From an uncultured Lentisphaeraceae bacterium (lineage in GTDB: Bacteria; Verrucomicrobiota; Kiritimatiellia; RFP12; DVOR01), in contig CASEMQ010000034.1 in NCBI GenBank assembly GCA_949289005.1, positions 59,964 to 123,963 on the forward strand: a stretch of DNA of 64,000 bases, given 5' to 3'. The translations under genes were made by a program, and so were the position numbers. Shown one piece after another: positions 2,207-57,459 of the stretch; position 1 is the first letter of the stretch; every line of letters begins with the position of its first letter. Below the pieces are notes generated by a model. That model was not told where the DNA came from. It saw only the letters and a list, made by a program, of their open reading frames with translations, and searched no databases.

Positions 2207-3475
2207 ATGGCGTACACGAAGATTGTCGAGCCGGCGTTTGGCGAGAAGATCACGATGGGTGCGGATGGGCGGCTGGTGGTGCCGGATTGCCCAATCGTCC
2301 CTTTTGTGGAGGGTGACGGCACGGGGCCGGACATCACGGCGGCGGCGATGGTGGTGTGGGACGCGGCGGTGAAGGCCGCGTATGGCGACAGCCGCAAAAT
2401 CGCGTGGATGGAGGTTTACGCGGGGGAGAAGGCGAACGCGGTCTATGGGCCGAACACGTGGTTGCCGGAGGAGACGCTGGAGGCGTGCCGGGATTGCCTG
2501 GTCTCGATCAAGGGGCCGCTGACGACGCCGGTGGGCGGGGGTATCCGATCGATCAACGTGGCGATGCGCCAGGCGCTGGATCTCTATGTCTGCCTGCGGC
2601 CGGTGCGGTGGTTCAAGGGGGTGCCGAGCCCGGTGCTGCATCCGGAGCGGACGGACATGGTGATTTTCCGCGAGAACACGGAGGACATCTACGCGGGCAT
2701 CGAGTGGATGGAGGGGACGCCGGAGGCGCGGAAGGTGATCGACTTCCTTGTCAAGGAGATGGGCGTCAAGAAGATTCGCTTCCCGGGGACGAGTTCGATC
2801 GGCATCAAGCCGGTGTCGCGCGAGGGGAGCGAGCGGCTGATCCGGGCGGCCATCGAGTATGCCATCGCGAACGACCGCAAGTCGGTGACGTTGGTGCACA
2901 AGGGCAACATCCAGAAGTTCACGGAGGGGGCGTTCCGCGACTGGGGTTACGCGCTGGCGCGGCGGGACTATGGCGCGCAGCCCATCGGCGAGGGGCCGTG
3001 GTGCGCCTTCGCGAACCCGCGCACGGGGCGGGAGATCGTGGTGAAGGATTGCATTTGCGACGCTTTCTTGCAGCAGATCTTGACGCGGCCGGCGGAGTAT
3101 GACGTGATCGCGACGCTGAACCTGAACGGCGACTATGTGTCGGACGCGTTGGCGGCGTGCGTGGGCGGCATCGGCATCGCGCCGGGCGCGAACATCAACT
3201 ACAGCACGGGCGTGGCGGTCTTCGAGGCCACGCACGGCACGGCGCCGAAGTACGCGGGGCTGGACAAGGTGAACCCCGGCTCGCTCATCCTCTCGGGCGA
3301 GATGATGTTGCGCTACATGGGCTGGACGGAGGCTGCGGACAAGATCATCGCGGCGATGGACAAGGTGATTGCCGACAAGGTGGTGACCTATGACTTCGCG
3401 CGGCTGATGGAGGGTGCGCGCGAGGTGAAGTGCTCTGAGTTCGGCCGGGCCTTGGCGGAGGCGATGCATGCGTAA
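2207..3475 (+). CDS. icd: NADP-dependent isocitrate dehydrogenase
   Basis: Full-length E. coli-type IDH similarity, 422 aa. RBS GGAGTG lies 7 nt upstream of ATG 2207. Confidence 0.9.
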
Positions 3476-5105
3476 CGTGTGGCAGGACCCGACGACGCTC
3501 GCCATCACCTGCGCCAAGGGCGTGGTGCCCTATCTGCGCCGGGAGCTGGAGGCGTTGGGCTACGAGATTTTGGGCAACGACGAGACGACGGTGGGCATTC
3601 GGGCCAAGAATGCCTGCCGCGACATCCTGCGGCTGAACCTGTGCCTGCGCACGGCGCAGCGCGTGCTGTGGCCCTTTGTGCAGGATGTGCGCTGCCGCAC
3701 GCTCAACGACCTCTATCGACTGGCCTATCTGGCGCCGTGGGAGCAGGTGCTGGACGTGGACCAATCCTTTCTCGTGAACAACGTCACGCAAGACGTGCCC
3801 ACGGTCACGGACACGCGGATGCCCACCCTGCGCCTGAAGGACGCCATCGTGGACCGGATGCGCGACAAGTGCGGCCGCCGCCCGAACGTGGGCGACACCG
3901 TGGTCGTGCGCGTGGAGGCCGAGGGCGAGGAACTGCTCAACCGCCGCGCCCCCCTGCGCTCGGCCCAGCGCCTGGTGCGGGCGGCCATCGAGGATTGGCT
4001 GCCCACGTTGCCCCCCGAGCAGGAGCGCGTCGCCCTCAAGATCGAGGTGGATGGCTACGACCTGATGTCGGGCGACTGGTTGCCGTTGGGCAAGATTGAC
4101 TTCCAGACGCTCAAGCGGCGCATGGAGCGCACCTTCGGCTCGCGGCTGAAGGAGGGGCTTCCCGGCGCGGCGGTCTTCCTCCATTGGCAGAAGACCCACG
4201 CCAAGATTTACCTGGACACCTCGGGCATGCCGCTCTCGCGGCGCGGTTATCGCAAGGAGGGCTGGGTGGCGCCGATGCAGGAGGCTTTGGCCGCCGCGTG
4301 CATCCTGGCCACGGGGTGGGACGGCAAGGTGCCCTTCGCGGTGCCCTTCAGCGGGTCGGGCACGCCCGCCATCGAGGCCGCGCTCATGGCCCGCAACATC
4401 CAGCCCGGCACCCTGCGCGCGGACTTCGCCTTCATGCACTTGAAGGGGTGGACCTCCATCATCCCCGGCGAGCGGGCCGGCATCAGCGTGCGCAAGCGCT
4501 TCGGCGCCACGCCCAAGGAAATCTGGCGCGAGATGCTCGCCGAGGCCAAGGCCGCCGAGCGCCCCTTCGACGACCCTTCCCTGCCTTTGATCGTGGGCGT
4601 GGATTGGGAGGACAAGGCGGTGGACATCGCCGAGCGCAACGCCAACGCCGCCGGCGTGGGGCAGAACGTGCGCTTCTTCGCGGAAGACTACTCGGACACG
4701 CCGCTCCCCAAGACCCCCGGCATCCTCTTCATGAACCCGCCCTACGGCGAGCGCCTGGAGGACGAGGAAAGCCTGGGGCCGCTCTACGAGGGCATCGGCC
4801 AATGGTTGCGCCACACGGTGCCCGCGGGGTGGCAGGCTTGGGTCATCACCTCCAGCAAACCGCTCTCGCTGAAAATCGGCCTGCGCACCTCGGCCATCCT
4901 CAACTTCAAGAGCGGCCCGCTTGACTGCCGTCTCATCGGCTATGACATCCACGGCCCGCTCCCCGAACCCGAGCCGGGAGCCGAGGCCGCTCCCGGTTCC
5001 GCGGCGGAAGCCGGCCCGGAGGCGGGGCCTGCGGGGGAGACGGCGTTCGCGACCAATCCGGATGCGGGGGGCGCGCCCGGCGCGGCTCCTGCGTCGGAGG
5101 CGTGA
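3468..5105 (+). CDS. rlmL: THUMP-domain 23S rRNA (guanine-N2)-methyltransferase RlmL-like with Ala/Pro/Gly-rich C-terminal tail
   Basis: N-terminal THUMP domain plus SAM methyltransferase motifs ([19 protein letters not shown]) as in RlmL/YcbY. Start overlaps icd stop (ATGCGTAA). Confidence 0.7.
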
Positions 5106-30765: not shown

Positions 30766-33700
30766 ATGAAGAGCGTTCTGTATGTTTGCGCCACTTTGCT
30801 GGGCGTGGTTCCTTTTGCGGCGGCGCAGACGGATTACGCGTCCATCTATACTTGGGAAATCGTTGATGGCGAGGCCCATATTTTGGATGTCAAAACAACG
30901 CTTTCCGGGGAAGTCGCGATTCCTGCCGAGTTGGATGGCTATCCTGTGACATCCGTTGGTGTCGCGGAACTTCCTGACGGACTCGCGGCCAAGGCGGGGC
31001 GCGATGGGTTCAATGGGCAGACCCGCATCACGGCGGTAACGATTCCACCGAGCGTCAAAACAATCGGCGACGACGCCTTCCGTGGGTGCACCGCGTTGGA
31101 GCGTGTGGCGCTCTCCTCCCCTGTGACGATCGGGGATTTTGCCTTCCGCGATTGCACTTCACTGCGGGAATTGGACGCGACGTATTTTCCGACGACGACC
31201 GTCTACTCCGGGTCTGAAGCCAATACGGCCTTTTATGGATGCGCCAATCTGCGCTTTGTGGGGCCGGAGAGCAAGGTCGTCGACGGGTCATTGGTCGATT
31301 GCCAGACGCTGGTTCGTGCGGCTGCCGGGACGGAGGAGGTCACGGTCCCGGAGGAAATCACGATGTTGGGGTATGCGGCTTTCGGCGGTTCGTCGCAACT
31401 GAAAACCGTCCACTTTATGGGACCGCCCCCATCGTGGTTTTACTGGAACGCGCCGGCTGACAATTGTGTCTTTTCCCCTTCCATCACCACGGTCACTTAT
31501 CGTTCCAAGTATGCCGCGGAGTGGGAGTCTTTTCTTGACGGGAAGAAAACCTGGACCGTTCAGTGCGCGGTGCTCAATGGCAATTCCTATCCCGTCCGCA
31601 CCATGACCTTCAACGTTGAGCCTTATGGCACGTGGGCACTCCAAGGGAACGCCAAGTATCTGACGTTTGAGGGTGGCACGGTGACGGGGCTTTCCAACAA
31701 GTCCGTTTCGGGCGAATTGGCGATTCCTGCGGAATATGACGGGCAGACGATCACGGGCATTTATCAGGACGCGTTCACGGACTGCACGCGCATCACGTCG
31801 GTGACGGTGCCGGGGACGGTTTCGACGATTGGCTTTCGCACGTTTGTGCGGATGACGGGCATGAAGGAAATCGTCTTCCAGGAGGGCGTGCAGGAAATCA
31901 CGTGGGGGGCGTTCTCGGATTGCACGGCGCTCAACCGCATCGTCATCCCGGCCAGTTGCACACGTATCGACGAGATCGCTTTCGACACGTGCGGGAAAAT
32001 CACGTTCGAGGTCGCCTCGGACAACCCCACGTATACCGCGGTCGATGGCGCCTTGTTGTCCAAAGACGGCCGGACGTTGGTTTTTGCCCCGGGTAGCGTC
32101 ACAAGCTACACGATTCCGGAAACGGTGACGGATGTTGCCGCGTTCGCGTTCGGAACGGATCAGCCGATTGCTTCGATCGACGTGCCGAGTTCCGTGTCCT
32201 ATTTGCCATCGACATGCTGTTGGTATAACACGACCGTCCGAAAGATTACCTTTCACGGCAATCCGCCGGAGGGCGGCATACCGGATGTCAATGTATGGAT
32301 CGAGGGGAACCCGTGGCCAACCACGGTGACGGGCTATTACCCGAAGTCGCGGGAGACGGCGTGGAAGGCGGCGATGGCGGCGGACGACGACGGGGACGAC
32401 GCCAAGTGGCATGGGCTGAAGATGGCGTCTTACCAGGACATCACGGGGCCGGCGCAGTATCTGACGTATGACGGCGGCACGGTCTCTGGCATTTCCAACA
32501 AGGGTGCCTCGGGCGCGCTGGTGATTCCGGACGAGATCGCGGACACGCCAATCTGGGCGATTTCCCAGGACGCGTTCACGGATTGCACGCGGATCACGTC
32601 GGTGACGGTGCCGGGGACGGTTTCGACGATCGGGAACCGTACGTTTGTGCGGATGACGGGCCTGAAGGAGATCGTCTTCCAAGAGGGCGTGCAGGAAATC
32701 ATGTGGGGGGCGTTCTCGGACTGCACGGCGCTCAACCGCATTGTCATCCCCGCCAGTTGCACAAGTATCGATGAGAGCGCCTTCGACACGTGCTACGAGA
32801 TTGCCTTTGAGGTTTCGCCGGACAACCCGGTCTACAAGTCGGTGGATGGCGCGTTGCTGACGAAGGACGGCACGAAGCTGATTTACGCGCCCGGGAACGT
32901 CACGGCCTACACAATCCCGGACACGGTGACGGAAATCGCGCGGTATGCTTTTGGCGCGGGGCAATCGCTGGGGGCGGTGAAGTTGGCCTCGGTGACGGTC
33001 CCGAAATCGGTGGAGACGATTCCGGAGAGTGCCTTCGCGTTCGGGTTCGGCGCGGTGAACGTGGACGCGGGCAACCCGAACTTCTCGTCCGAGAACGGCG
33101 TGCTTTACGACAAGGACAAGACGGCGTTGCTCCATGTCCCCACGACGGCCACGTCGTTCACGGTGCCGGATTCGGTGACGCGCATCGGGATGGGGGCGCT
33201 TTCCGAATGTGCGCTCACGTCTGTCGTTTTCTCGGACATGGGCACGTTGCGAGAAATCGGCGACCAGGCGTTCTGGGGCAGCAAACTCCGGACGCTGACG
33301 CTTCCCGAAGGCGTGGAACGCCTTGGATACGAAATCGCCGGCTGTTGCGAGAGCCTCTCGACGATTGTCTTCCCGGAGACGTTGACGGACTTGGGCGGGC
33401 AAGGTTTCACGGATTGTGATGCCTTGCGGCGGGTGGAGTTTCATGGCCTGCCGCCGTCGGAGGGAAGCACAGGCATCGTGCTCTATCATAACGCGGCGAA
33501 GGGCTATTATCCCGCAAGCTACGCGCCTGCCTGGGAGGCCGTGCTCAACGCGGACGGCACGTGGGGCGAAGGTATGCCGGAATATGGCCTTTACGCGCTC
33601 GCGATGGCCGTCTATGACGATGCGCCGACGGGGACGATGGCGCAACTGGAGTTCGCGGAGAATGGCGAGGGGGTGACGCTTGTCAAGGTGCCGGCCGGGT

Positions 33701-36300
33701 TTTCCGGGGCGTTGACGATCCCCGCGACGTGGCGTGTGGCGCGAGGCGAGGGTGCGTACGAGCGTTTGCCCGTGACGGCGATCGCGCCGGGGGCGTTCGC
33801 GGGGTGCACGCGTTTGACCTCGGTGGTCATCCCAGGCTCGGTGAGGACGGTGGGAGACGGCGTCTTCGCCGGGTGTTCCGCCCTGACGGCGGTCACCTTC
33901 CAAGAGGGGGTCGGGCGGCTGGAGGGGGTGGTCTTCGCGGACTGCGCGAAGTTGGCGAAGGTGAAGATGCCCGCGACGCTGACGGCCATCGCGCGCACGC
34001 CTTTCCTGGAGGCTTGCCCGGAAATCGCCTTCGAGGTGGCGTCGGACAATCCGGTCTATCAATCGAGCGGCGGCGCGTTGCTGGACGCGGGGTGCACGCG
34101 GTTGCTGGTCGGCCCGGGCAACGTGGCGACGTATGTGGTGCCGGCGGGGGTGACGGCAATCGCGGACTACGCGTTCGCGGCGGGGCAGTCGTTGGGAACC
34201 GTCAAACTCGCGACGGTCACGGTGCCGGCGGGCGTGACGGCGATTGGCGACTATGCCTTTGCCTTCGGCATCGACAAGGTGAACGTGGCGGAGGGGGACC
34301 CGGCCTATGCCTCCGTGGACGGCGCGCTTTTCGACAAGACCAAGCGCACCTTGCTGCACGTGCCTTGCACGCCGACGACCTTTGCCATCCCGGAGGGCGT
34401 GGAGACAATCGCCGCCGGCGCGTTCTCCGCATGCGCGGTCACGGCGATAACCATCCCGGAGGGTGTGACGGACATCGGCGGCGACGCGTTTGTCGGGTGC
34501 ACGCGCCTGACGGCGCTGACGTTGCCGGCGTCGTTGCGCGCGTGGGGCGGCGACGGCGGCGTGTCGTTGGATACATGCACGGCACTTGCCACCATCACCT
34601 TCACCGGACAGCCCGATACGTTGGAGATCGACGGGGCCACGTGGCCGGCAAAGGCGAAAGGGCGCTATCCCGCGCTCTGGACGGGCTATTGGGAGGCCGC
34701 GCTGGACGAGGCGGGCACCTTCCATGGCCTGCCGATGGTCGCCTATGCGCCGACTGGCGCGGCGGGTTCGCTGACCTATGACCCCACGAGCACCGACCCC
34801 GTCGTGACGGGCATCGCCACCTCGGCCGGCGGTGCGTTGGAGATCCCGCAGGGCGTGACGGCCATCGCGCCGGGCGCGCTTGACGGCGCCTCGCGGCTGA
34901 CCGCCGTGACGGTGCCGGGTTCCGTCGCCACCATTCAGGCCGGCACGTTCACGAACCTGGCCGGGCTTGCGACGGTGACGTTGCAAGAGGGCGTGACGCG
35001 GATTGAGGCGGGGGCGTTCGAGGGTTGCGCCAAGCTGACAAAGGTGGTCATCCCCGCTTCCTGCACGGCCATCGATCCCCGCGCTTTCGCGAATTGCCCG
35101 GACATCGCCATCGAGGTGGCCGAGGGCAACCCGGTCTACGCCTCTGTGGATGGCGCGTTGCTGAGCAAGGATGGCACGGTGCTGTATCTTGCGCCCGGCA
35201 ACGTCACGGCCTATGCCATCCCGGGAACGGTCACGACAATCGCCTCGGGGGCCTTTGGCGCGGGGCAGGCGCAGGGAAGCAAGAAGTTGGCCTCGGTGAC
35301 AATCCCGGCCTCGGTCGTGAAAATCGCGGAGGGCGCGTTCGCGGGCTTTGGCAAGGTGACGGTGGCGGATGGGAACCCGGCCTATGCCTCCACGTCGGAC
35401 GGTGCGTTGTTCGACAAGGCGCGCACGACCCTGTTCCATGTGCCCAACACGTTGTCCGGGGCTTACACGGTGCCCGAGGGCGTCGCGACGATCGCGGCGG
35501 AGGCGTTCCGCGATTGCACGGCGCTCACCGCCGTGACCTTCCCCACCACGCTCGCAGCCATTGGGCGCGATGCGTTCGCCGGTTGCACGAAGGTTGGCAC
35601 GCTCACTTTCCTGGGGCTTCCGCCCGCGACGGTGGGCGAGGGCGCCTTTGGCACGTGCACAGCGGGCGCGTATCCCAACGCCTATTGGGAGGAATGGGTG
35701 GCAGCCATGGGGGCGGAGGGCGTTTGGCACGGCTTGGCCATGTCGACCACGCCCTTCACCACCATCGTCCGTCGCGTCGGCAGCGGCACGGTGAACGACG
35801 GCGCCACGAACATCACGACCTTCCCGCGGACGATGAGCTATCAGCCCGGGCAGACGGTCACGCTCACGGCCACGCCCGCCAAAGGCTACGTCTTCCTGGG
35901 GTGGTCGGGCGCCGGCATCGAGACGCACGGCGCGGAGGCGACCTTCCCCGCCGGCGGCGCGCCGGAGATCACGGCCCATTTCGTCACGCAAGCCGTGGCC
36001 GATTCGATGGAGGCGGTCGGCGTCGGCGGCATGGATTCCTCCTTGGAGGAGGCGCTCGCCAATGGCGATGTGTTCACCAAGGAGCAGATCCAGGAGATGG
36101 CCTTCGGCGCGCCGCTCTTCGAGGTAAAGGACGGCGAGGCGACCATCGGGCTCACCTTGCGCACCGCCGAGGCGCTTGACGGCGACTGGGAAGCGCTCAA
36201 GCCGAGCGATGTCGTCGTCGGCGCGGACGGGACCATCTCCATCAAGGTCTCGGTCGAGGGGAAGACGCGCTTCTATAAGTTCGTCGTCCCGGAAAAGTGA
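30766..36300 (+). CDS. giant secreted cell-surface protein with BspA-type leucine-rich repeats and C-terminal Listeria-Bacteroides (Flg_new) repeat domain
   Basis: 1844 aa with signal peptide. Reiterated modules IPxSVxxIGxxAFxxCxxLxxV (LRR_5/BspA type) in 4-5 ~265-aa super-repeats. C-terminal GYVFLGWSG motif. Confidence 0.8.
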   Translation: MKSVLYVCATLLGVVPFAAAQTDYASIYTWEIVDGEAHILDVKTTLSGEVAIPAELDGYPVTSVGVAELPDGLAAKAGRDGFNGQTRITAVTIPPSVKTIGDDAFRGCTALERVALSSPVTIGDFAFRDCTSLRELDATYFPTTTVYSGSEANTAFYGCANLRFVGPESKVVDGSLVDCQTLVRAAAGTEEVTVPEEITMLGYAAFGGSSQLKTVHFMGPPPSWFYWNAPADNCVFSPSITTVTYRSKYAAEWESFLDGKKTWTVQCAVLNGNSYPVRTMTFNVEPYGTWALQGNAKYLTFEGGTVTGLSNKSVSGELAIPAEYDGQTITGIYQDAFTDCTRITSVTVPGTVSTIGFRTFVRMTGMKEIVFQEGVQEITWGAFSDCTALNRIVIPASCTRIDEIAFDTCGKITFEVASDNPTYTAVDGALLSKDGRTLVFAPGSVTSYTIPETVTDVAAFAFGTDQPIASIDVPSSVSYLPSTCCWYNTTVRKITFHGNPPEGGIPDVNVWIEGNPWPTTVTGYYPKSRETAWKAAMAADDDGDDAKWHGLKMASYQDITGPAQYLTYDGGTVSGISNKGASGALVIPDEIADTPIWAISQDAFTDCTRITSVTVPGTVSTIGNRTFVRMTGLKEIVFQEGVQEIMWGAFSDCTALNRIVIPASCTSIDESAFDTCYEIAFEVSPDNPVYKSVDGALLTKDGTKLIYAPGNVTAYTIPDTVTEIARYAFGAGQSLGAVKLASVTVPKSVETIPESAFAFGFGAVNVDAGNPNFSSENGVLYDKDKTALLHVPTTATSFTVPDSVTRIGMGALSECALTSVVFSDMGTLREIGDQAFWGSKLRTLTLPEGVERLGYEIAGCCESLSTIVFPETLTDLGGQGFTDCDALRRVEFHGLPPSEGSTGIVLYHNAAKGYYPASYAPAWEAVLNADGTWGEGMPEYGLYALAMAVYDDAPTGTMAQLEFAENGEGVTLVKVPAGFSGALTIPATWRVARGEGAYERLPVTAIAPGAFAGCTRLTSVVIPGSVRTVGDGVFAGCSALTAVTFQEGVGRLEGVVFADCAKLAKVKMPATLTAIARTPFLEACPEIAFEVASDNPVYQSSGGALLDAGCTRLLVGPGNVATYVVPAGVTAIADYAFAAGQSLGTVKLATVTVPAGVTAIGDYAFAFGIDKVNVAEGDPAYASVDGALFDKTKRTLLHVPCTPTTFAIPEGVETIAAGAFSACAVTAITIPEGVTDIGGDAFVGCTRLTALTLPASLRAWGGDGGVSLDTCTALATITFTGQPDTLEIDGATWPAKAKGRYPALWTGYWEAALDEAGTFHGLPMVAYAPTGAAGSLTYDPTSTDPVVTGIATSAGGALEIPQGVTAIAPGALDGASRLTAVTVPGSVATIQAGTFTNLAGLATVTLQEGVTRIEAGAFEGCAKLTKVVIPASCTAIDPRAFANCPDIAIEVAEGNPVYASVDGALLSKDGTVLYLAPGNVTAYAIPGTVTTIASGAFGAGQAQGSKKLASVTIPASVVKIAEGAFAGFGKVTVADGNPAYASTSDGALFDKARTTLFHVPNTLSGAYTVPEGVATIAAEAFRDCTALTAVTFPTTLAAIGRDAFAGCTKVGTLTFLGLPPATVGEGAFGTCTAGAYPNAYWEEWVAAMGAEGVWHGLAMSTTPFTTIVRRVGSGTVNDGATNITTFPRTMSYQPGQTVTLTATPAKGYVFLGWSGAGIETHGAEATFPAGGAPEITAHFVTQAVADSMEAVGVGGMDSSLEEALANGDVFTKEQIQEMAFGAPLFEVKDGEATIGLTLRTAEALDGDWEALKPSDVVVGADGTISIKVSVEGKTRFYKFVVPEK
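31765..31974 (+). repeat. intragenic near-identical direct repeat A (~95% identical to 32568-32777)
   Basis: e.g. GCGTTCACGGA(C/T)TGCACGCG(C/G)ATCACGTCGGTGACGGTGCCGGGGACGGTTTCGACGAT shared; offset 803 bp. Confidence 0.8.
32568..32777 (+). repeat. intragenic near-identical direct repeat B (partner of 31765-31974)
   Basis: Same ~210-bp segment encoding the AFTDCTRITSVTVPGTVSTIG...ALNRIVIPASCT module. Confidence 0.8.
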
Positions 36301-47402: not shown

Positions 47403-48638
47403 ATGCCACAGCCATCGTTCGATGTCGTTTTTCACCTCATTGGCGGGCAGGCGCTGCCCAACGCCTTCGCCATCCACGCCATCCCAGCCGAGCATCACAT
47501 CCTCTTCGTTACCGACAAAACCGAAGGGATCGCCAAGCGTCTCCAAAACGCCTTCGCCGACAAACGGTTGGAAGCGATCCCCGTGGAGCCCTACAACATC
47601 CCCGGCCTCCAAGCCATCTTCACGGAGCAACTCCACCGCTTCGCGGGGCAACGCATGGCCGCCAACATCACCGGCGCCACCAAGCCCATGGCCCTCATGT
47701 TGGCGCACGTCGCGGCACAGATCGGGCGAATTCCCCTCTACTATATGGAGACCTCGCCCGACCCGCTAAAAATCGAAATCTGGCCCAACGCGGACAAATG
47801 GACGGCCTCCACCTCCTTCCTCGAAACGGCCATCAAGACCGTTCGCGAATACATCGCCCTCCACTCCGACGCCTTGTTCGAGCCCGGGGAGAAAACCTGC
47901 TCCGCCCAGACCATCGCCTTGGCACGCACCATCGCGGCTTGCCCGTCCATCCGCAAATCCCTCTCCTTCAAACTCGGAGGTCGTAAAAACAGCCCCGGTT
48001 TTACGGATTGCCTCCCGAACGCCAAATACGACTTCTACGAAAGTCAGTTCGACGCCACGCTCGATGACTTCGACCGCGACTTGGTCAAATATACTTGGGA
48101 CACCAAGGCGCGAAACGCCTGCCGCGCCGGCATCCAAGCCATGATTGAAACCGACGGCAAAGAGGCCACGTGCCGCTTCCTAGGCGGTATCTGGCTGGAA
48201 ATCTTCGCCTTCTCCGAATTGCAAGGGCGCGACGGTTTCTTTGACGTGCAACAAAGCGCACACGTGAAGTTCAGGCAAAACGAATACGACCGGCAAGAGT
48301 TTGACGTCGCAACCTGCACCAAACACCACGTCTACATCGTGGAATGCAAAAGCGGGCGCGTGACGAGCGAGCAAATCGCCGACCTCACCGCGAACGTTAC
48401 GCAATACGCCGGCACCTTCGGGCGCGGCGTCCTCCTGACGTCAAGTGAATGCATGGGGCACACTAGCGACCGCGAAGCCTACGAAAATCTTAAGACGCGT
48501 ATCCGCGAAAGCGACAACATCATGTTGGTGGAACTGCCCAAAAAATTGCCTCCCAACTTCTTGGCCAACGCACTCCGCTCCTGGAAAGAAGGCGTCTACA
48601 CCCCGCCGGCCCAGGGCTTCCCTCCCAAGAGACGTTGA
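47403..48638 (+). CDS. CARF-domain protein fused to PD-(D/E)xK nuclease-like domain (Card1/Can2-like cyclic-oligoadenylate-activated nuclease candidate)
   Basis: N-terminal Rossmann-like strand VVFHLIGGQALPN and CARF signature NITGATKPM. C-terminal E266...D301...E314-C-K316 restriction-endonuclease-like motif. RBS AAGGAG. Sits 275 bp upstream of a CRISPR array. Confidence 0.55.
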   Translation: MPQPSFDVVFHLIGGQALPNAFAIHAIPAEHHILFVTDKTEGIAKRLQNAFADKRLEAIPVEPYNIPGLQAIFTEQLHRFAGQRMAANITGATKPMALMLAHVAAQIGRIPLYYMETSPDPLKIEIWPNADKWTASTSFLETAIKTVREYIALHSDALFEPGEKTCSAQTIALARTIAACPSIRKSLSFKLGGRKNSPGFTDCLPNAKYDFYESQFDATLDDFDRDLVKYTWDTKARNACRAGIQAMIETDGKEATCRFLGGIWLEIFAFSELQGRDGFFDVQQSAHVKFRQNEYDRQEFDVATCTKHHVYIVECKSGRVTSEQIADLTANVTQYAGTFGRGVLLTSSECMGHTSDREAYENLKTRIRESDNIMLVELPKKLPPNFLANALRSWKEGVYTPPAQGFPPKRR

Positions 48639-48705: not shown

Positions 48706-48913
48706 GTGCCCACGCGACAAAATGCGGAGGGAGCCCAAACACCTCCAAAAACCGCCTCTCCCTCCACATTTCGAAACTCGTTCGCCTACAATGTCTTGTA
48801 AATAAAATCCATTGCGATGTCCCTCCTCCCCGTCCCCAAAAATAGCCTCCAAAACCGTCTCCCTCCGCATCCGCCCAATAAAGCGTTTGACCACAACATC
48901 AAACTATGCTACA
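48706..48913 (+). other. putative CRISPR leader (AT-enriched, promoter-like TACAAT / TTGTAAATAAAAT)
   Basis: Lies between the terminator and the first repeat, on the side opposite the degenerate terminal repeat. Locally AT-rich in a GC-rich window. Confidence 0.4.
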
Positions 48914-49176
48914 GTCACACCATCGTTCAAGGCCGAAAGGCTATTGCGACAGTTCCTTGGTGAAGAAGTCCATAATGGAATCCTTTCTGTCACACCATCG
49001 TTCAAGGCCGAAAGGCTATTGCGACTGGCGATGAGTGAGATTCATCCAGCAATTGTTTCCGGTCACACCATCGTTCAAGGCCGAAAGGCTATTGCGACTA
49101 ATGAATGCCCCGATACCAACAAGGACGATTCCGAGTCCAGTCACACCATCGTTCAAGGCCGAAAGGCGCTTGCGAT
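48914..49176 (+). CRISPR. CRISPR array: 4 repeats of 37 bp (GTCACACCATCGTTCAAGGCCGAAAGGCTATTGCGAC), 3 spacers (38, 36, 41 bp), last repeat degenerate
   Basis: Three identical repeats at 48914, 48989 and 49062 plus a degenerate fourth at 49140 (GCGCTTGCGAT end). Unique AT-richer spacers. The repeat 3' end ATTGCGAC resembles the ATTGAAAC crRNA 5' handle. Confidence 0.85.
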
Positions 49177-49297
49177 GGTCACGGATGTGGCGTAGGTTGG
49201 GCGGGGGCGTTGGGGTCTTGTCCGTGGCTGTTGTGGGGTGGGGGAGTGGGCATGGGCGAGTGGCACCGGCCATGCCTGCCGATGACGGTTGCGTGGG

Positions 49298-49486
49298 TTG
49301 TCGATAACCGGGGCCGGTGCTGTTGAAAACTTGTTGAAAGTCTGCCTGCCTCGGGGAGGGCCAAAACCGTTTTTTCAATCAGGGAGCGGGGTCGTTTTTC
49401 GAGACACGCCGTATCTCGCATCGAGGCACGGCGTGTCTTGCCTCGGGATACGGCGTGTTCCGGAATGGTTTGGCCTGTCAATAACC
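49298..49486 (+). repeat. structured intergenic repeat element, copy 3 of 3 (plus orientation)
   Basis: Hairpin GAGACACGCCGT/ACGGCGTGTCTT with G-T wobble. Flanked by TTGTCGATAACC (start) and TGTCAATAACC (end). Confidence 0.6.
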
Positions 49487-53981: not shown

Positions 53982-55919
53982 TCAGGGGGTGGCGGATGGC
54001 GTGAGGCGAATGAGGAAGCCTCCGCCGGGGGCGCAGGGGAGGGTGAGGGTGTCTTGGGCGGTGACGGTGCGGGTCTGGAGGATGTAGTCGGTGGGGACGG
54101 CGTCTGAGACGGGGCTGTCGCGGAGGATGGTGGCGGTGTAGGTGACGCCGGGGACGAGGTCGGCGAGGGGAATGGCGAGGTCTCGGGCTTGGGGGCCGAC
54201 GATGGCGGCAATCCAGTGCGCGTCGCCTTTGCGGCGGCGGACGAGGAGGAGGGCGTCGGGGGCGGAGGCGGGGTCGCAGCGGGTGTCGTCCCACGTGAGG
54301 GGGAGGTCGGCGAGGAAGCGGGTATAGGCGGGTTCGCGGGCGTAGGCGGAGGGACTGTCGCAGAACACGCGGAAGTTGGTGTCCAGGAGCATGAGGAGCG
54401 CGGCTTGGCGGCAGCGGGTGCCCATGGACATGGGGCGGGAGACGTTGGGGCGAAAGGTCTGGCGAGTGGCGTTGCGCATGGCGCCGGGGGTGTAGTCGGC
54501 GGGGCCGGCGAGGAGGCGGGTGAAGGGGATGCGCAGGTCGTTGGTGATGAAGTCGAGGTCGTTGCCGGCCCATTTGGCGGTCTCCAGGCCGAGGATGCCT
54601 TCGTAGGTGAGGACGTTGGGGAAGGTGCGCGAGAGGCCGGTGGGCTTGTGGATGCCGTGGTAGTCGAGAACCATGCGGTGCTTGGCCGCAAGCGCGGCGG
54701 TCTCGCGGAGGAAGTGGGCGATGGCGGCATCGTCGCGGTCGAAGTGGTCGATCTTGAAGCCTTTGACGCCCATCCGGGCGTAGTGGGCGAAAAGCGCGTC
54801 CTGGCGGCCATAGAGCGCCCCCCAGTCGGCCCAGAGGACGAGGCCGACGTTCCTTTTTTTGGCGTACGCCAGGAGCGCGGGGAGGTCAAGCCCGGGCGCC
54901 ACTTTCAAGAGGTCGTCGCCTTGGCTCCAGCCGGAGTCGATGAGGGCGTAGGGGAGGCCGAGGTCCGCGGCGAAGTCAATGTAGGCCCGGTAGGTCTCGG
55001 TGTTTATGCCGGGCTTGAAGGGGGTGTCGTCGAGCCCGAAGGCGTTCCATCACTCCCAGGCGCACGCGCCGGGCTTGACCCAAGAGAAGTCGCCCTGGGC
55101 CGGCTCGGAGAGTGCCATGACCAGGTCATTGCCATAGAGGCCGGCAGCGTTGTCGGCCAGCATGAAGATGCGCCAAGGCAGGGCGCGGGGGCCGGGCGTG
55201 CGCACAAGCCATGGCTCGCGGGCGACGACAAGGCGCTGGCGGCCGGTGGCCTCCACTTTGGCCGGGAAACGCGCCATGGCCGCGACGAGCCGCCCAGGGG
55301 GCTCAATCGGGCGGCGTAGGTTCAGCCCGGGATAGTCGCGCACCTCGGCCTCCGCAAGGGCGAGTGCCACGCCATCGCCCAACAGCGTGACGGGAAGGTA
55401 GATCAAGTGCTTAGGGTCGATTTTCCCAAGGGCGGAGCGGTTGTGGGTGGACTCGAAGTCGCCTTGGAAGTGGTCGCCGCGGTATCCCGCCGGATTGTAG
55501 CCATAGAGCAGCTCGGGCTCGCCCGCGGGGGCGAAGGTGAACGTCTCGTCGCGAATTTCCGCCTCGCCCGCCGCCACAATCGTCCAACGATAGGCCACGC
55601 CTTGGTCGGTGGACAGGATGGTGAGCGACAGGTCGCCAAAGTCCGCCGTCGCGCAGTTGGCTTTCAGGTCGATGTGTGCGCGCACGGTGTGGAACGGCAC
55701 CTCGGCGGAGAAGTCGTGCGCAAAGGTCGTCACCCGCGGCGTGCCGCCGAGCCTTGCCCCTGCCACCTCTAGGCCGATGGGCGCAGGCGCCAAGATTGGC
55801 TTGCCCCGGCGGGAGACGGCAAAAAGCAATCGTTCGCCTTCCCGCGAGACGGTGAGCGTATTGGTCCCATCGGGGGAGGTGACGGACATTAGCATGGCAA
55901 GCGCGGCCTCGGGCAACAT
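53982..55919 (-). pseudogene. glycoside hydrolase family 97 alpha-glucosidase gene interrupted by one in-frame TGA (minus strand 55052-55050)
   Basis: ORFs 55919-55050 and 54908-53982 are in the same frame. Read-through gives ...SWVKPGACAWE*WNAFGLDD..., and the stop sits where GH97 proteins carry a conserved Trp-rich motif. Confidence 0.7.
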
Positions 55920-56056: not shown

Positions 56057-57334
56057 TCACTCGGCGTCGTCGAGGAGCCCTTGGCCTTTGAGGATGGCCT
56101 TGGCCTCGTCGGGGGAGAGGGATTCGTCCTCGTTGTCGTCCTCGTCTTCGAAATCGATCGTAACGTTCGTTTTCTGTTGCGCCTGCATGGCCTTGTGGAG
56201 CGCGATGCACTCCTTGACGATGGCCAGGCCGGTGTCGCGCCGGATGGAGAAGTCGATGGCGACGGTGTCGCCAGCGACCGATACGGGCACCTTGGCGAAC
56301 CATTTGCCCAACTCAGACGTGTTGGTCTTCATGATCATGGGGATGAACATCTGCCCCCACATCGCCTTGAGGCCGATCATGACCTCCTGCACCTGCTTGG
56401 CGGCGTCGGCATTCGTGGCCTGCAACGTCACGGGCAAGCGGAGGATGTCGTCCTCATACCAGCCCGCGGTGCGGATCAAATGCGTCTGCAAGGCCCAGCC
56501 CATCGTCAGCAGCATCGGCTGCCGTTGTTCGGGGGGGACCTGCTCCTGCACGCGGTTGAGGATGGATGCCAAGTCGCGCATCGCCATGATGCCATATTGC
56601 GCCGCTGGGCACGGCGCTTGGAGCGCCTTGCCCAGCGGCGAATCCGCCTTCAGCGTCGCGCCCTTGCCCGCGAAGAACGCCCGCGTTTCCGCGAAGTCCA
56701 GCGTGAGCGCGAAGGCGAGTCCCTCGGGAATCGCCCGCCAGGCCAGGCACGCCGGGTCGTCGGCGTCCCGCAACAGCGTCCAGCCCTCTTGCGTGGACAG
56801 CGCCAGTTGCGTAGGCGTGTCTTTGTCTTTGTCATCGTCGTCGTTGTCTGTGTCCTTGGCCTGCGCCGCCTTCTCATTGGCTTGGTCGACCAATTTCTTG
56901 ATGGCCTGGTTTAGCCGCGCCACGTCCGCCTTCGGGTTTTCCACCACGGCGTAGACCGCCAAGCCCGTGGGGAGATTGCCCTCCTTCATGGCCGCGAAGG
57001 TGGGCGGCAGGCAGAGGGAGACGACGATAGACTTCGCCGTGCATGTCTTCATGTCCTCTGAAAAGCCCAAGGAAGCCTGGAGCACATCCTGCCACACGGG
57101 GGAGAGATTGAACTTCTTCCAGTCGATGGCCTGCCCCGGGATTTCCACGCCCTGCTCCTTGCAGAGGGCCCGGATGTCCGCGTCCCACTTCTTCTGTGCG
57201 GGCGACTGTGTGTCGAGCCCGGAAATCACATAGACCAGATCCGCGTTCTCGGGCACATACTTCAAGTTCGGCGCCGCCCACAATGCCCCCACGGCCAAGC
57301 ATCCGGCCGCGACGCTCATCCAATGTCTCAACAT
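56057..57334 (-). CDS. secreted hypothetical protein with acidic D/E-rich segments
   Basis: Signal peptide MLRHWMSVAAGCLAVGALWA. No recognisable domain. Poly-Asp tract DTDNDDDDKDKD. Confidence 0.5.
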   Translation of the reverse strand: MLRHWMSVAAGCLAVGALWAAPNLKYVPENADLVYVISGLDTQSPAQKKWDADIRALCKEQGVEIPGQAIDWKKFNLSPVWQDVLQASLGFSEDMKTCTAKSIVVSLCLPPTFAAMKEGNLPTGLAVYAVVENPKADVARLNQAIKKLVDQANEKAAQAKDTDNDDDDKDKDTPTQLALSTQEGWTLLRDADDPACLAWRAIPEGLAFALTLDFAETRAFFAGKGATLKADSPLGKALQAPCPAAQYGIMAMRDLASILNRVQEQVPPEQRQPMLLTMGWALQTHLIRTAGWYEDDILRLPVTLQATNADAAKQVQEVMIGLKAMWGQMFIPMIMKTNTSELGKWFAKVPVSVAGDTVAIDFSIRRDTGLAIVKECIALHKAMQAQQKTNVTIDFEDEDDNEDESLSPDEAKAILKGQGLLDDAE

Positions 57335-57459
57335 GGCAATACTCCTTGTTCCAACAGTCGCCCATCGGGTCGCGCCCAACATGAGCCAACCCAACGCGCA
57401 ACGACACAGTCATCTTATCATAGCCATCGTTGGTTTTCAAGGGTTCAGTGCCCGGGCGG

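Follow-up and report, generated by a model that had tools for sequence, protein, structure and literature searches.

Segregating lesions and relaxed constraint in a BtGH97b-like GH97 gene of an uncultured bacterium related to Kiritimatiellota/Lentisphaerota

We analysed a 64,000-nucleotide (nt) stretch of contig CASEMQ010000034.1 (assembly GCA_949289005.1; hereafter the window), from an uncultured bacterium related to Kiritimatiellota/Lentisphaerota, in which a GH97 gene on the minus strand (53982..55919) is interrupted by a single in-frame TGA at codon 290 (W290*). The interrupted gene is very probably a real, inactive BtGH97b-like allele, and its stop one of at least 11 lesions that segregate in the species while the gene decays near-neutrally as an ordinary pseudogene. 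No conspecific copy that we recovered is intact, the genes around GH97 are free of stops and frameshifts in the same loci, and the polymorphism of GH97 fits a loss of constraint older than W290* itself.

Results

Read from the ATG at 55919-55917 to the natural TGA stop at 53984-53982, the minus strand forms one frame of 645 codons with a sole internal stop, the TGA at 55052-55050. The two open reading frames (ORFs) predicted here, 55919-55050 (289 codons plus TGA) and 54908-53982 (308 amino acids (aa), with a TTG start), share this frame, as a preliminary description of this DNA had stated in naming the TGA as the only break. The stop stands in the context ...SWVKPGACAWE*WNAFGLDD..., and the residues after it are WNAFGLDDTPFKPG; the changed base is 55050, A on the minus strand and G in relatives, so that the ancestral codon at 55050..55052 is TGG (Trp). 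Upstream of the stop, the 289-codon 5' fragment (55053..55919) encodes the N-terminal beta-sandwich (GH97_N, 1.2e-29, residues 13-273), and the in-frame 3' remainder (53982..55049) encodes the (beta/alpha)8 barrel (Glyco_hydro_97, 2.1e-73) and GH97_C (2.1e-18), with all three matches exceeding the Pfam curated cut-offs. Because the Glyco_hydro_97 match covers profile positions 24-275 and the first 23 positions fall across the stop, the TGA lies inside the catalytic domain and not between two genes. The uninterrupted ORF of ~620-740 codons that marks a functional GH97 gene is thus cut at codon 290. The sole product expected from the W290* allele is the 289-aa beta-sandwich, with the 3' part untranslated or at best made from an internal start. 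The first in-frame start past the stop is a TTG at 54906..54908, 47 codons downstream, and a product begun there would be without the N domain and the first barrel strand carrying the Trp-Trp (W-W) pair.

With the stop masked, residues 14-639 of the protein align end to end with PDB 3a24 and 5e1q (E = 4.8e-126), and the three-domain GH97 architecture (N-terminal beta-sandwich, (beta/alpha)8 barrel, C-terminal beta domain) is present, whereas SusB-type alpha-glucosidases match far more weakly (E ~1e-30) and over residues 244-639 only. Two GH97 subfamilies have been described, a retaining one with the signature (K/M)(I/V)DF and an inverting one with HHET and K(T/S)GY (Gloster et al. 2008, PMC2670981). 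In the window gene the retaining signature reads K-I-D-H, with the Asp kept and the Phe, found in 115 of 116 homologs, changed to His. I390-D391-H392 of this motif lie at 54744..54752 (minus strand); D391 aligns with the catalytic nucleophile Asp of BtGH97b, at the position of the sole difference between 3a24 (KGFKVDF) and 5e1q (KGFKVGF; KGFKIDH here). The HHET general-base motif is absent (YHGIH here), and the inverting, SusB-like features (HHET with Glu439, and the Gly of K(T/S)GY) are lacking, with Asp standing where SusB has Gly469. A Glu pair six residues apart, E440...E446 (YEGILGLE, 54582..54602, minus strand), is retained and aligns with FEGVNGLE of 3a24. By this spacing the two residues would be the equivalents of BtGH97a Glu526 and Glu532, the Ca2+ ligand and catalytic acid that are absolutely conserved across the family (PMC2670981).

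Judged by its K-I-D-H and YHGIH motifs, the protein probably belongs to the retaining BtGH97b-like branch, and the enzyme was probably an alpha-galactosidase. The gene had been recognized from the start as GH97, in agreement with the three Pfam domains and the end-to-end alignment with 3a24, but the label of alpha-glucosidase that accompanied it is probably wrong, given the BtGH97b match at 4.8e-126 against 1e-30 for SusB, the nucleophile Asp and the missing HHET.

We aligned 116 full-length homologs (36-68% identical, 624-690 aa), all of them single chains that span both halves of the interrupted gene, which excludes two independent genes. Columns 290 and 291 are W in 116/116, and the stop replaces the first of the two, so the W-W motif suspected at the break is indeed there. 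In BtGH97a, Trp331 hydrogen-bonds the substrate O4 (PMC2670981), and one Trp of the pair probably corresponds to this residue, the register being ambiguous by one residue.

W290* is a genuine derived G-to-A transition, TGG to TGA, private to one haplotype. A 431-aa database protein (P0003), 98% identical, reads AWEWWNAFG. Its contig (L001; ENA ERZ16268085) is 98.8% identical to the window over the gene and has GAA TGG TGG against GAG TGA TGG in the window; the two are syntenic through a 425-aa hypothetical gene, GH97, DJ-1, rpoN, 2-hydroxyacid dehydrogenase, recO, S15, Card1 and GH3. The population consensus at codon 290 is likewise TGG. The exact 289-aa truncated product was found on three contigs from different assembly pipelines, one of 501 kb in NCBI, one of 24 kb in Logan (ERR10610439; L002) and one of 10-20 kb, and the L002 DNA is 100% identical to the window over 1736 nt, TGA included. 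An exact look-up of the 308-aa C-terminal ORF (P0121) found no record. The transition proposed in the preliminary description as the simplest explanation is therefore what the strains display, with TGG in L001 and in the consensus, the same TGA in L002, and W throughout the homologs.

We fetched conspecific contigs and aligned the gene from 22 sources, counting 20 copies as conspecific (listed are the window, L001, L002, L007-L020, L022 and L024-L027). All 20 carry at least one lesion; besides the window this makes 19 copies, none intact. Eleven distinct lesions were found (four nonsense changes, five frameshifts and two deletions), none of them common to all copies, and the majority consensus is an intact ORF of 645 codons. 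The nonsense changes are W290* (TGG>TGA; window and L002), W363* (TGG>TGA; L007-L010), Q275* (CAG>TAG; L011-L015, L020 and L022) and W237* (TGG>TAG; L018, of a lineage 92% identical). Frameshifts arise from +1T at nt 585 (L001, L020, L022 and L024-L027), -1T at nt 95 (L017), -1C at nt 1133 (L011, L012, L014 and L015), -1C at nt 1610 (L011) and -1C at nt 44, the last combined with a 595-nt deletion in L019. The presence of +1T both with and without Q275* implies recombination or recurrence. An in-frame 198-nt deletion between 16-nt direct repeats is carried by L013 and L016 and appears in the gene calls P0138 and P0139. The repeats, ACCCGC(C/T)TCCTCGCCG, lie inside the GH97 barrel region, on the minus strand of the window, at 54506..54521 (first copy, intact here) and 54308..54323 (second copy). 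The deletion removes one copy and the intervening sequence, a pattern left by short repeats that slip or recombine.

The break points were independently reproduced by database gene calls. Two 90% clusters hold the fragments of the window, and both contain fragments only, of 205, 242, 274, 289, 362 and 579 aa in one and of 60, 165, 263, 308, 393, 431 and 583 aa in the other. Ten neighbour genes carried no frameshift or stop in any locus, with in-frame length variants in two only; since these genes are full length in the same loci, poor assembly is not the cause of the GH97 lesions.

An apparent 27-nt deletion of the nucleophile region in L012 was discarded as a run of N (a scaffold gap). L021, which had looked like a divergent lineage sharing +1T, was excluded. 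In this contig (ENA ERZ16268131 scaffold_13586, 2869-5095), the flank and the first ~700 nt of GH97, including +1T, come from the focal species, and the remainder and the downstream DNA match the organism with an intact GH97 of the P0001 type (L028, ERZ16268132 scaffold_10548; 77% nt identity, different flanks). Two readings fit L021: a chimera produced in metagenome assembly across the conserved barrel region, or genuine recombination between species.

Intact homologs persist in related metagenome-assembled genomes (MAGs) and contigs, in a different genomic context (P0001, P0002, P0004 and others; L003-L005), and P0001, on L028, shares its ENA assembly with the focal-species contig L018. A search of ~15 billion proteins gave no intact relative more than 90% identical, the best full-length match being 68%. 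A scan of GTDB genomes returned relatives of 62-69% identity only (uncultured Kiritimatiellaeota or Lentisphaeraceae) and a scan of JGI metagenomes one relative at 66%, with no conspecific copy in either. The window gene pairs a disabling change with an intact ancestral sequence still seen in close relatives.

Constraint on GH97 is relaxed relative to its neighbours. Segregating nonsynonymous and synonymous changes (N:S) number 34.5:20.5 in GH97, and the pooled count for 13 neighbours is 61:109 (Fisher p = 9e-4). The within-species ratio of nonsynonymous to synonymous diversity (piN/piS) is 0.43 for GH97 and 0.00-0.40 for the 13 neighbours, and GH97 alone tolerates nonsense and indel lesions. 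Under neutral models built on the consensus ORF, missense:synonymous should be 1.8-2.8, and 1.7 was observed; nonsense:synonymous should be 0.075-0.09 against an observed 3:20.5 (~0.15), a value drawn from three nonsense mutations. GH97 therefore evolves close to neutrally. As all 19 other copies are broken and the polymorphism is near-neutral, the loss of constraint is species-wide and predates W290*. The allele itself is young, and the preliminary option of a very recent pseudogene holds for W290*, private as it is to one haplotype, but not for the decay of the gene, since constraint had been lost earlier.

The least constrained neighbour, at 56057-57394 (minus strand), lies directly upstream of GH97 (piN/piS 0.40, N:S 15:12). 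Gene calls in other strains give it 423 or 425 aa, with in-frame length variants, and its product has no Pfam match; the gene may be functionally linked to GH97 and relaxing alongside it. A separate in-frame length polymorphism was seen in the essential sigma factor RpoN, which has 496 aa in L017 and L019 against 500 aa in the window and the other complete loci.

Some changes shared by the species could predate the lesions. S329 (54933..54935, minus strand), present in every conspecific copy examined, replaces the Glu of 'DEGW' found in 107/116 homologs. The column maps to Glu391 of BtGH97a (2d73 residues 363-470 align to query 28-134, and the E of VEGW is 391), a ligand of the substrate O4 (PMC2670981), which makes S329 a candidate earlier missense hit. 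The species consensus also departs from the family at H392 (F in 115/116), V518 (M in 116/116), and C286 and F294, which flank the W-W pair. Of the 136 columns with a conservation of at least 85%, 11 differ in the species consensus, which ranks 16 of 117 sequences; nine of the 11 closest relatives show 1-7 deviations and the other two 9 and 12. An earlier change of function or an earlier relaxation may lie behind these deviations, though their excess is modest. A shared missense 'first hit' as the explanation of the relaxation was set aside, as a rank of only 16th of 117 is suggestive and not decisive.

Other features of the window

Otherwise the window is made up of ordinary housekeeping genes, all intact. 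A gene for a Card1-type CARF nuclease spans 47403-48638 (plus strand), and its ortholog in L001 matches Pfam CARF_Card1 and Card1_endonuc. It is followed at 48909-49177 by a mini-array resembling clustered regularly interspaced short palindromic repeats (CRISPR), in which a 37-nt repeat, GTCACACCATCGTTCAAGGCCGAAAGGCTATTGCGAC, occurs four times at a spacing of 73-78 nt; no cas genes were found among the window ORFs scanned. G+C content is 49-62% in the 47.4-50.0 kb stretch against 66-74% in the flanks, a drop that suggests an acquired island. Between this array and the S15 gene, in what looks like non-coding DNA, 49397-49465 holds three 22-nt units in tandem (TCGAGACACGCCGTATCTCGCA and variants), which also make up an imperfect palindrome of 34 nt. 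Farther away, an ORF of 1844 aa at 30766-36300 (plus strand) has eight BspA-type leucine-rich repeat stretches (LRR_5, 5.7e-145) and an InlB B-repeat-like domain, and probably encodes a large surface protein.

Discussion

TGA and TGG differ by a single base, so the interruption could be a sequencing or assembly error over a true TGG codon. However, the same truncated product and the same DNA recur in three separately produced assemblies, and errors would not strike GH97 in all 20 copies while sparing ten neighbours in every one; we regard an error as very improbable. Decoding of the TGA, by programmed read-through, selenocysteine or a near-cognate tRNA-Trp, to make useful amounts of a full-length enzyme is likewise very improbable. 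UGA is the leakiest stop and is misread chiefly by tRNA-Trp (in E. coli and Bacillus), which would restore exactly the ancestral residue, and traces of wild-type protein are conceivable, with any such leak at W290* expected to be small. Yet TGA is an ordinary terminator here: it ends most of the other predicted window genes (~29 of ~38, with TAA in 7 and TAG in 2) and 9 of 13 neighbour genes in all strains, and the consensus GH97 ORF holds 13 TGG codons. An alternative genetic code, with UGA as Trp or Gly, does not fit this usage, and the preliminary description was right to doubt a genome-wide recoding of TGA to Trp, though not in stating that all other genes end in TGA. Nor does the site resemble a selenoprotein or programmed recoding, as the homolog residue is W in every case, never Cys or Sec (selenocysteine), and the codon is TGG in conspecific copies, the stop being confined to one haplotype. 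We rejected a Sec or read-through element, since folding of the 86 nt at and beyond the TGA showed no advantage over shuffled sequences (z = -0.82) and no structure like a selenocysteine insertion sequence or read-through signal, and neither a tRNA of any kind, tRNA-Sec included (ARAGORN), nor an Rfam match at the gathering threshold was found in the whole window. Frameshifts and large deletions in other strains are, moreover, beyond rescue by read-through. The stop lies no more than ~10 residues from the junction of GH97_N and the barrel, which would suit a split gene that still functions, its N domain and catalytic part being made as separate subunits, but this is the least credible reading: a second subunit begun at the earliest in-frame start would have its first barrel strand and W-W pair deleted, every homolog is a single chain, and the break points vary among strains (codons 15, 32, 195, 237, 275, 290, 363, 378 and 537). 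Among the options first raised for the TGA, the pseudogene stands, a sequencing error is very unlikely in view of the three assemblies, and read-through finds no support.

The alternative that bears on the cause of decay is that loss of GH97 was positively selected, so that independent knock-outs were favoured again and again across lineages or hosts, owing, for instance, to a cost of the enzyme or of its product in the present niche. This would be parallel adaptive loss, not drift, of a carbohydrate-active enzyme (CAZyme) in an uncultured, possibly gut, bacterium. The breakage of all 20 copies by 11 different lesions, none universal, is what repeated knock-outs would leave; relative to synonymous changes, 3 nonsense changes were observed where neutrality predicts ~1.7, or about twofold more, and related MAGs and contigs keep intact copies, one of them in the same ENA assembly as a broken one. 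If adaptive loss were true, the species-specific changes at substrate-contact positions, E329S (in the BtGH97a Glu391 column) and F392H (next to the nucleophile), would be traces of an earlier shift in function. Against it, the nonsense excess comes from three events and is not significant, and the near-neutral missense spectrum fits simple relaxation. Combined lesions, such as +1T with Q275*, are as expected of sequence already dead. By a rough estimate, neutral decay would also have produced ~1.7 disabling events per lineage since the common ancestor (piS ~0.012, giving ~12 neutral changes from root to tip, with a nonsense fraction of 0.025 and ~0.12 indels per substitution). Neutral decay alone would thus already break most lineages, and universal breakage does not in itself require positive selection. 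We consider adaptive loss unlikely.

We therefore favour near-neutral decay. In the most likely history, the enzyme would have become dispensable before the sampled strains diverged, or would have been crippled earlier by a change that left the ORF unbroken. Each lineage would then have gained its own stop, frameshift or deletion by drift, with recombination mixing some of them. In the window haplotype, a G-to-A change turned the TGG of the invariant Trp290 into TGA; translation would end after the N-terminal beta-sandwich, the catalytic barrel and C-terminal domain would not be made, and enzyme activity would be lost.

Several points weigh against this account. Most conspecific contigs come from one ENA/Logan accession series, apparently one cohort, and some assemblies may share samples. 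The three W290* contigs have identical neighbours and may stem from one strain or one sample. The piN/piS of 0.43, being below 1, points either to some constraint over part of the genealogy or to a noisy estimate, and no lesion common to all copies marks a trigger of the relaxation.

In annotation, the two ORFs are best joined under a single flag as a BtGH97b-like GH97 pseudogene, and neither counted as two CAZyme genes nor named an alpha-glucosidase, which matters wherever glycan-degrading capacity is read from MAGs. The locus captures a gene midway through its decay, with an ORF that remains intact in the species consensus but without a working copy in any of the genomes sampled; in related lineages, intact homologs persist. 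It can also serve to describe the spontaneous lesion spectrum of a high-GC uncultured lineage, with G:C-to-A:T nonsense changes, 1-nt indels and repeat-mediated deletions, and it raises the question of which niche change made an alpha-galactosidase-like enzyme dispensable.

The closest characterized system is BtGH97b (BT1871) of Bacteroides thetaiotaomicron, a retaining Ca2+-dependent alpha-galactosidase (3a24; D415G mutant 5e1q). The window gene shares with it the three-domain architecture over a full-length alignment, the nucleophile Asp in K-I/V-D, the Glu pair in xEGxxGLE and the AW(D/E)WWN motif. It differs in the interruption of its ORF at W290, in having His for the Phe that follows the nucleophile and Ser for the Glu of 'DEGW', and in V518, which replaces an invariant Met. 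The inverting alpha-glucosidase SusB/BtGH97a (2d73, 2jka) has in common with it the family, the fold, the W-W pair and the Glu pair of Ca2+ binding and catalytic acid; it is much more distant (1e-30, residues 244-639), and the window gene has no HHET and carries Asp at the Gly469 position.

A literature search for reports of pseudogenes in Kiritimatiellae found nothing specific. Segregating loss-of-function alleles and gene decay under relaxed selection are a general phenomenon in bacterial populations, and the decaying GH97 gene, which gives no sign of unusual decoding, is of this known kind. Like other such cases it combines multiple independent nonsense, frameshift and deletion alleles with a raised N:S and intact flanking genes. 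The picture of segregating lesions is unusually complete, and differs in that 0 of 20 copies are intact yet no lesion is fixed.

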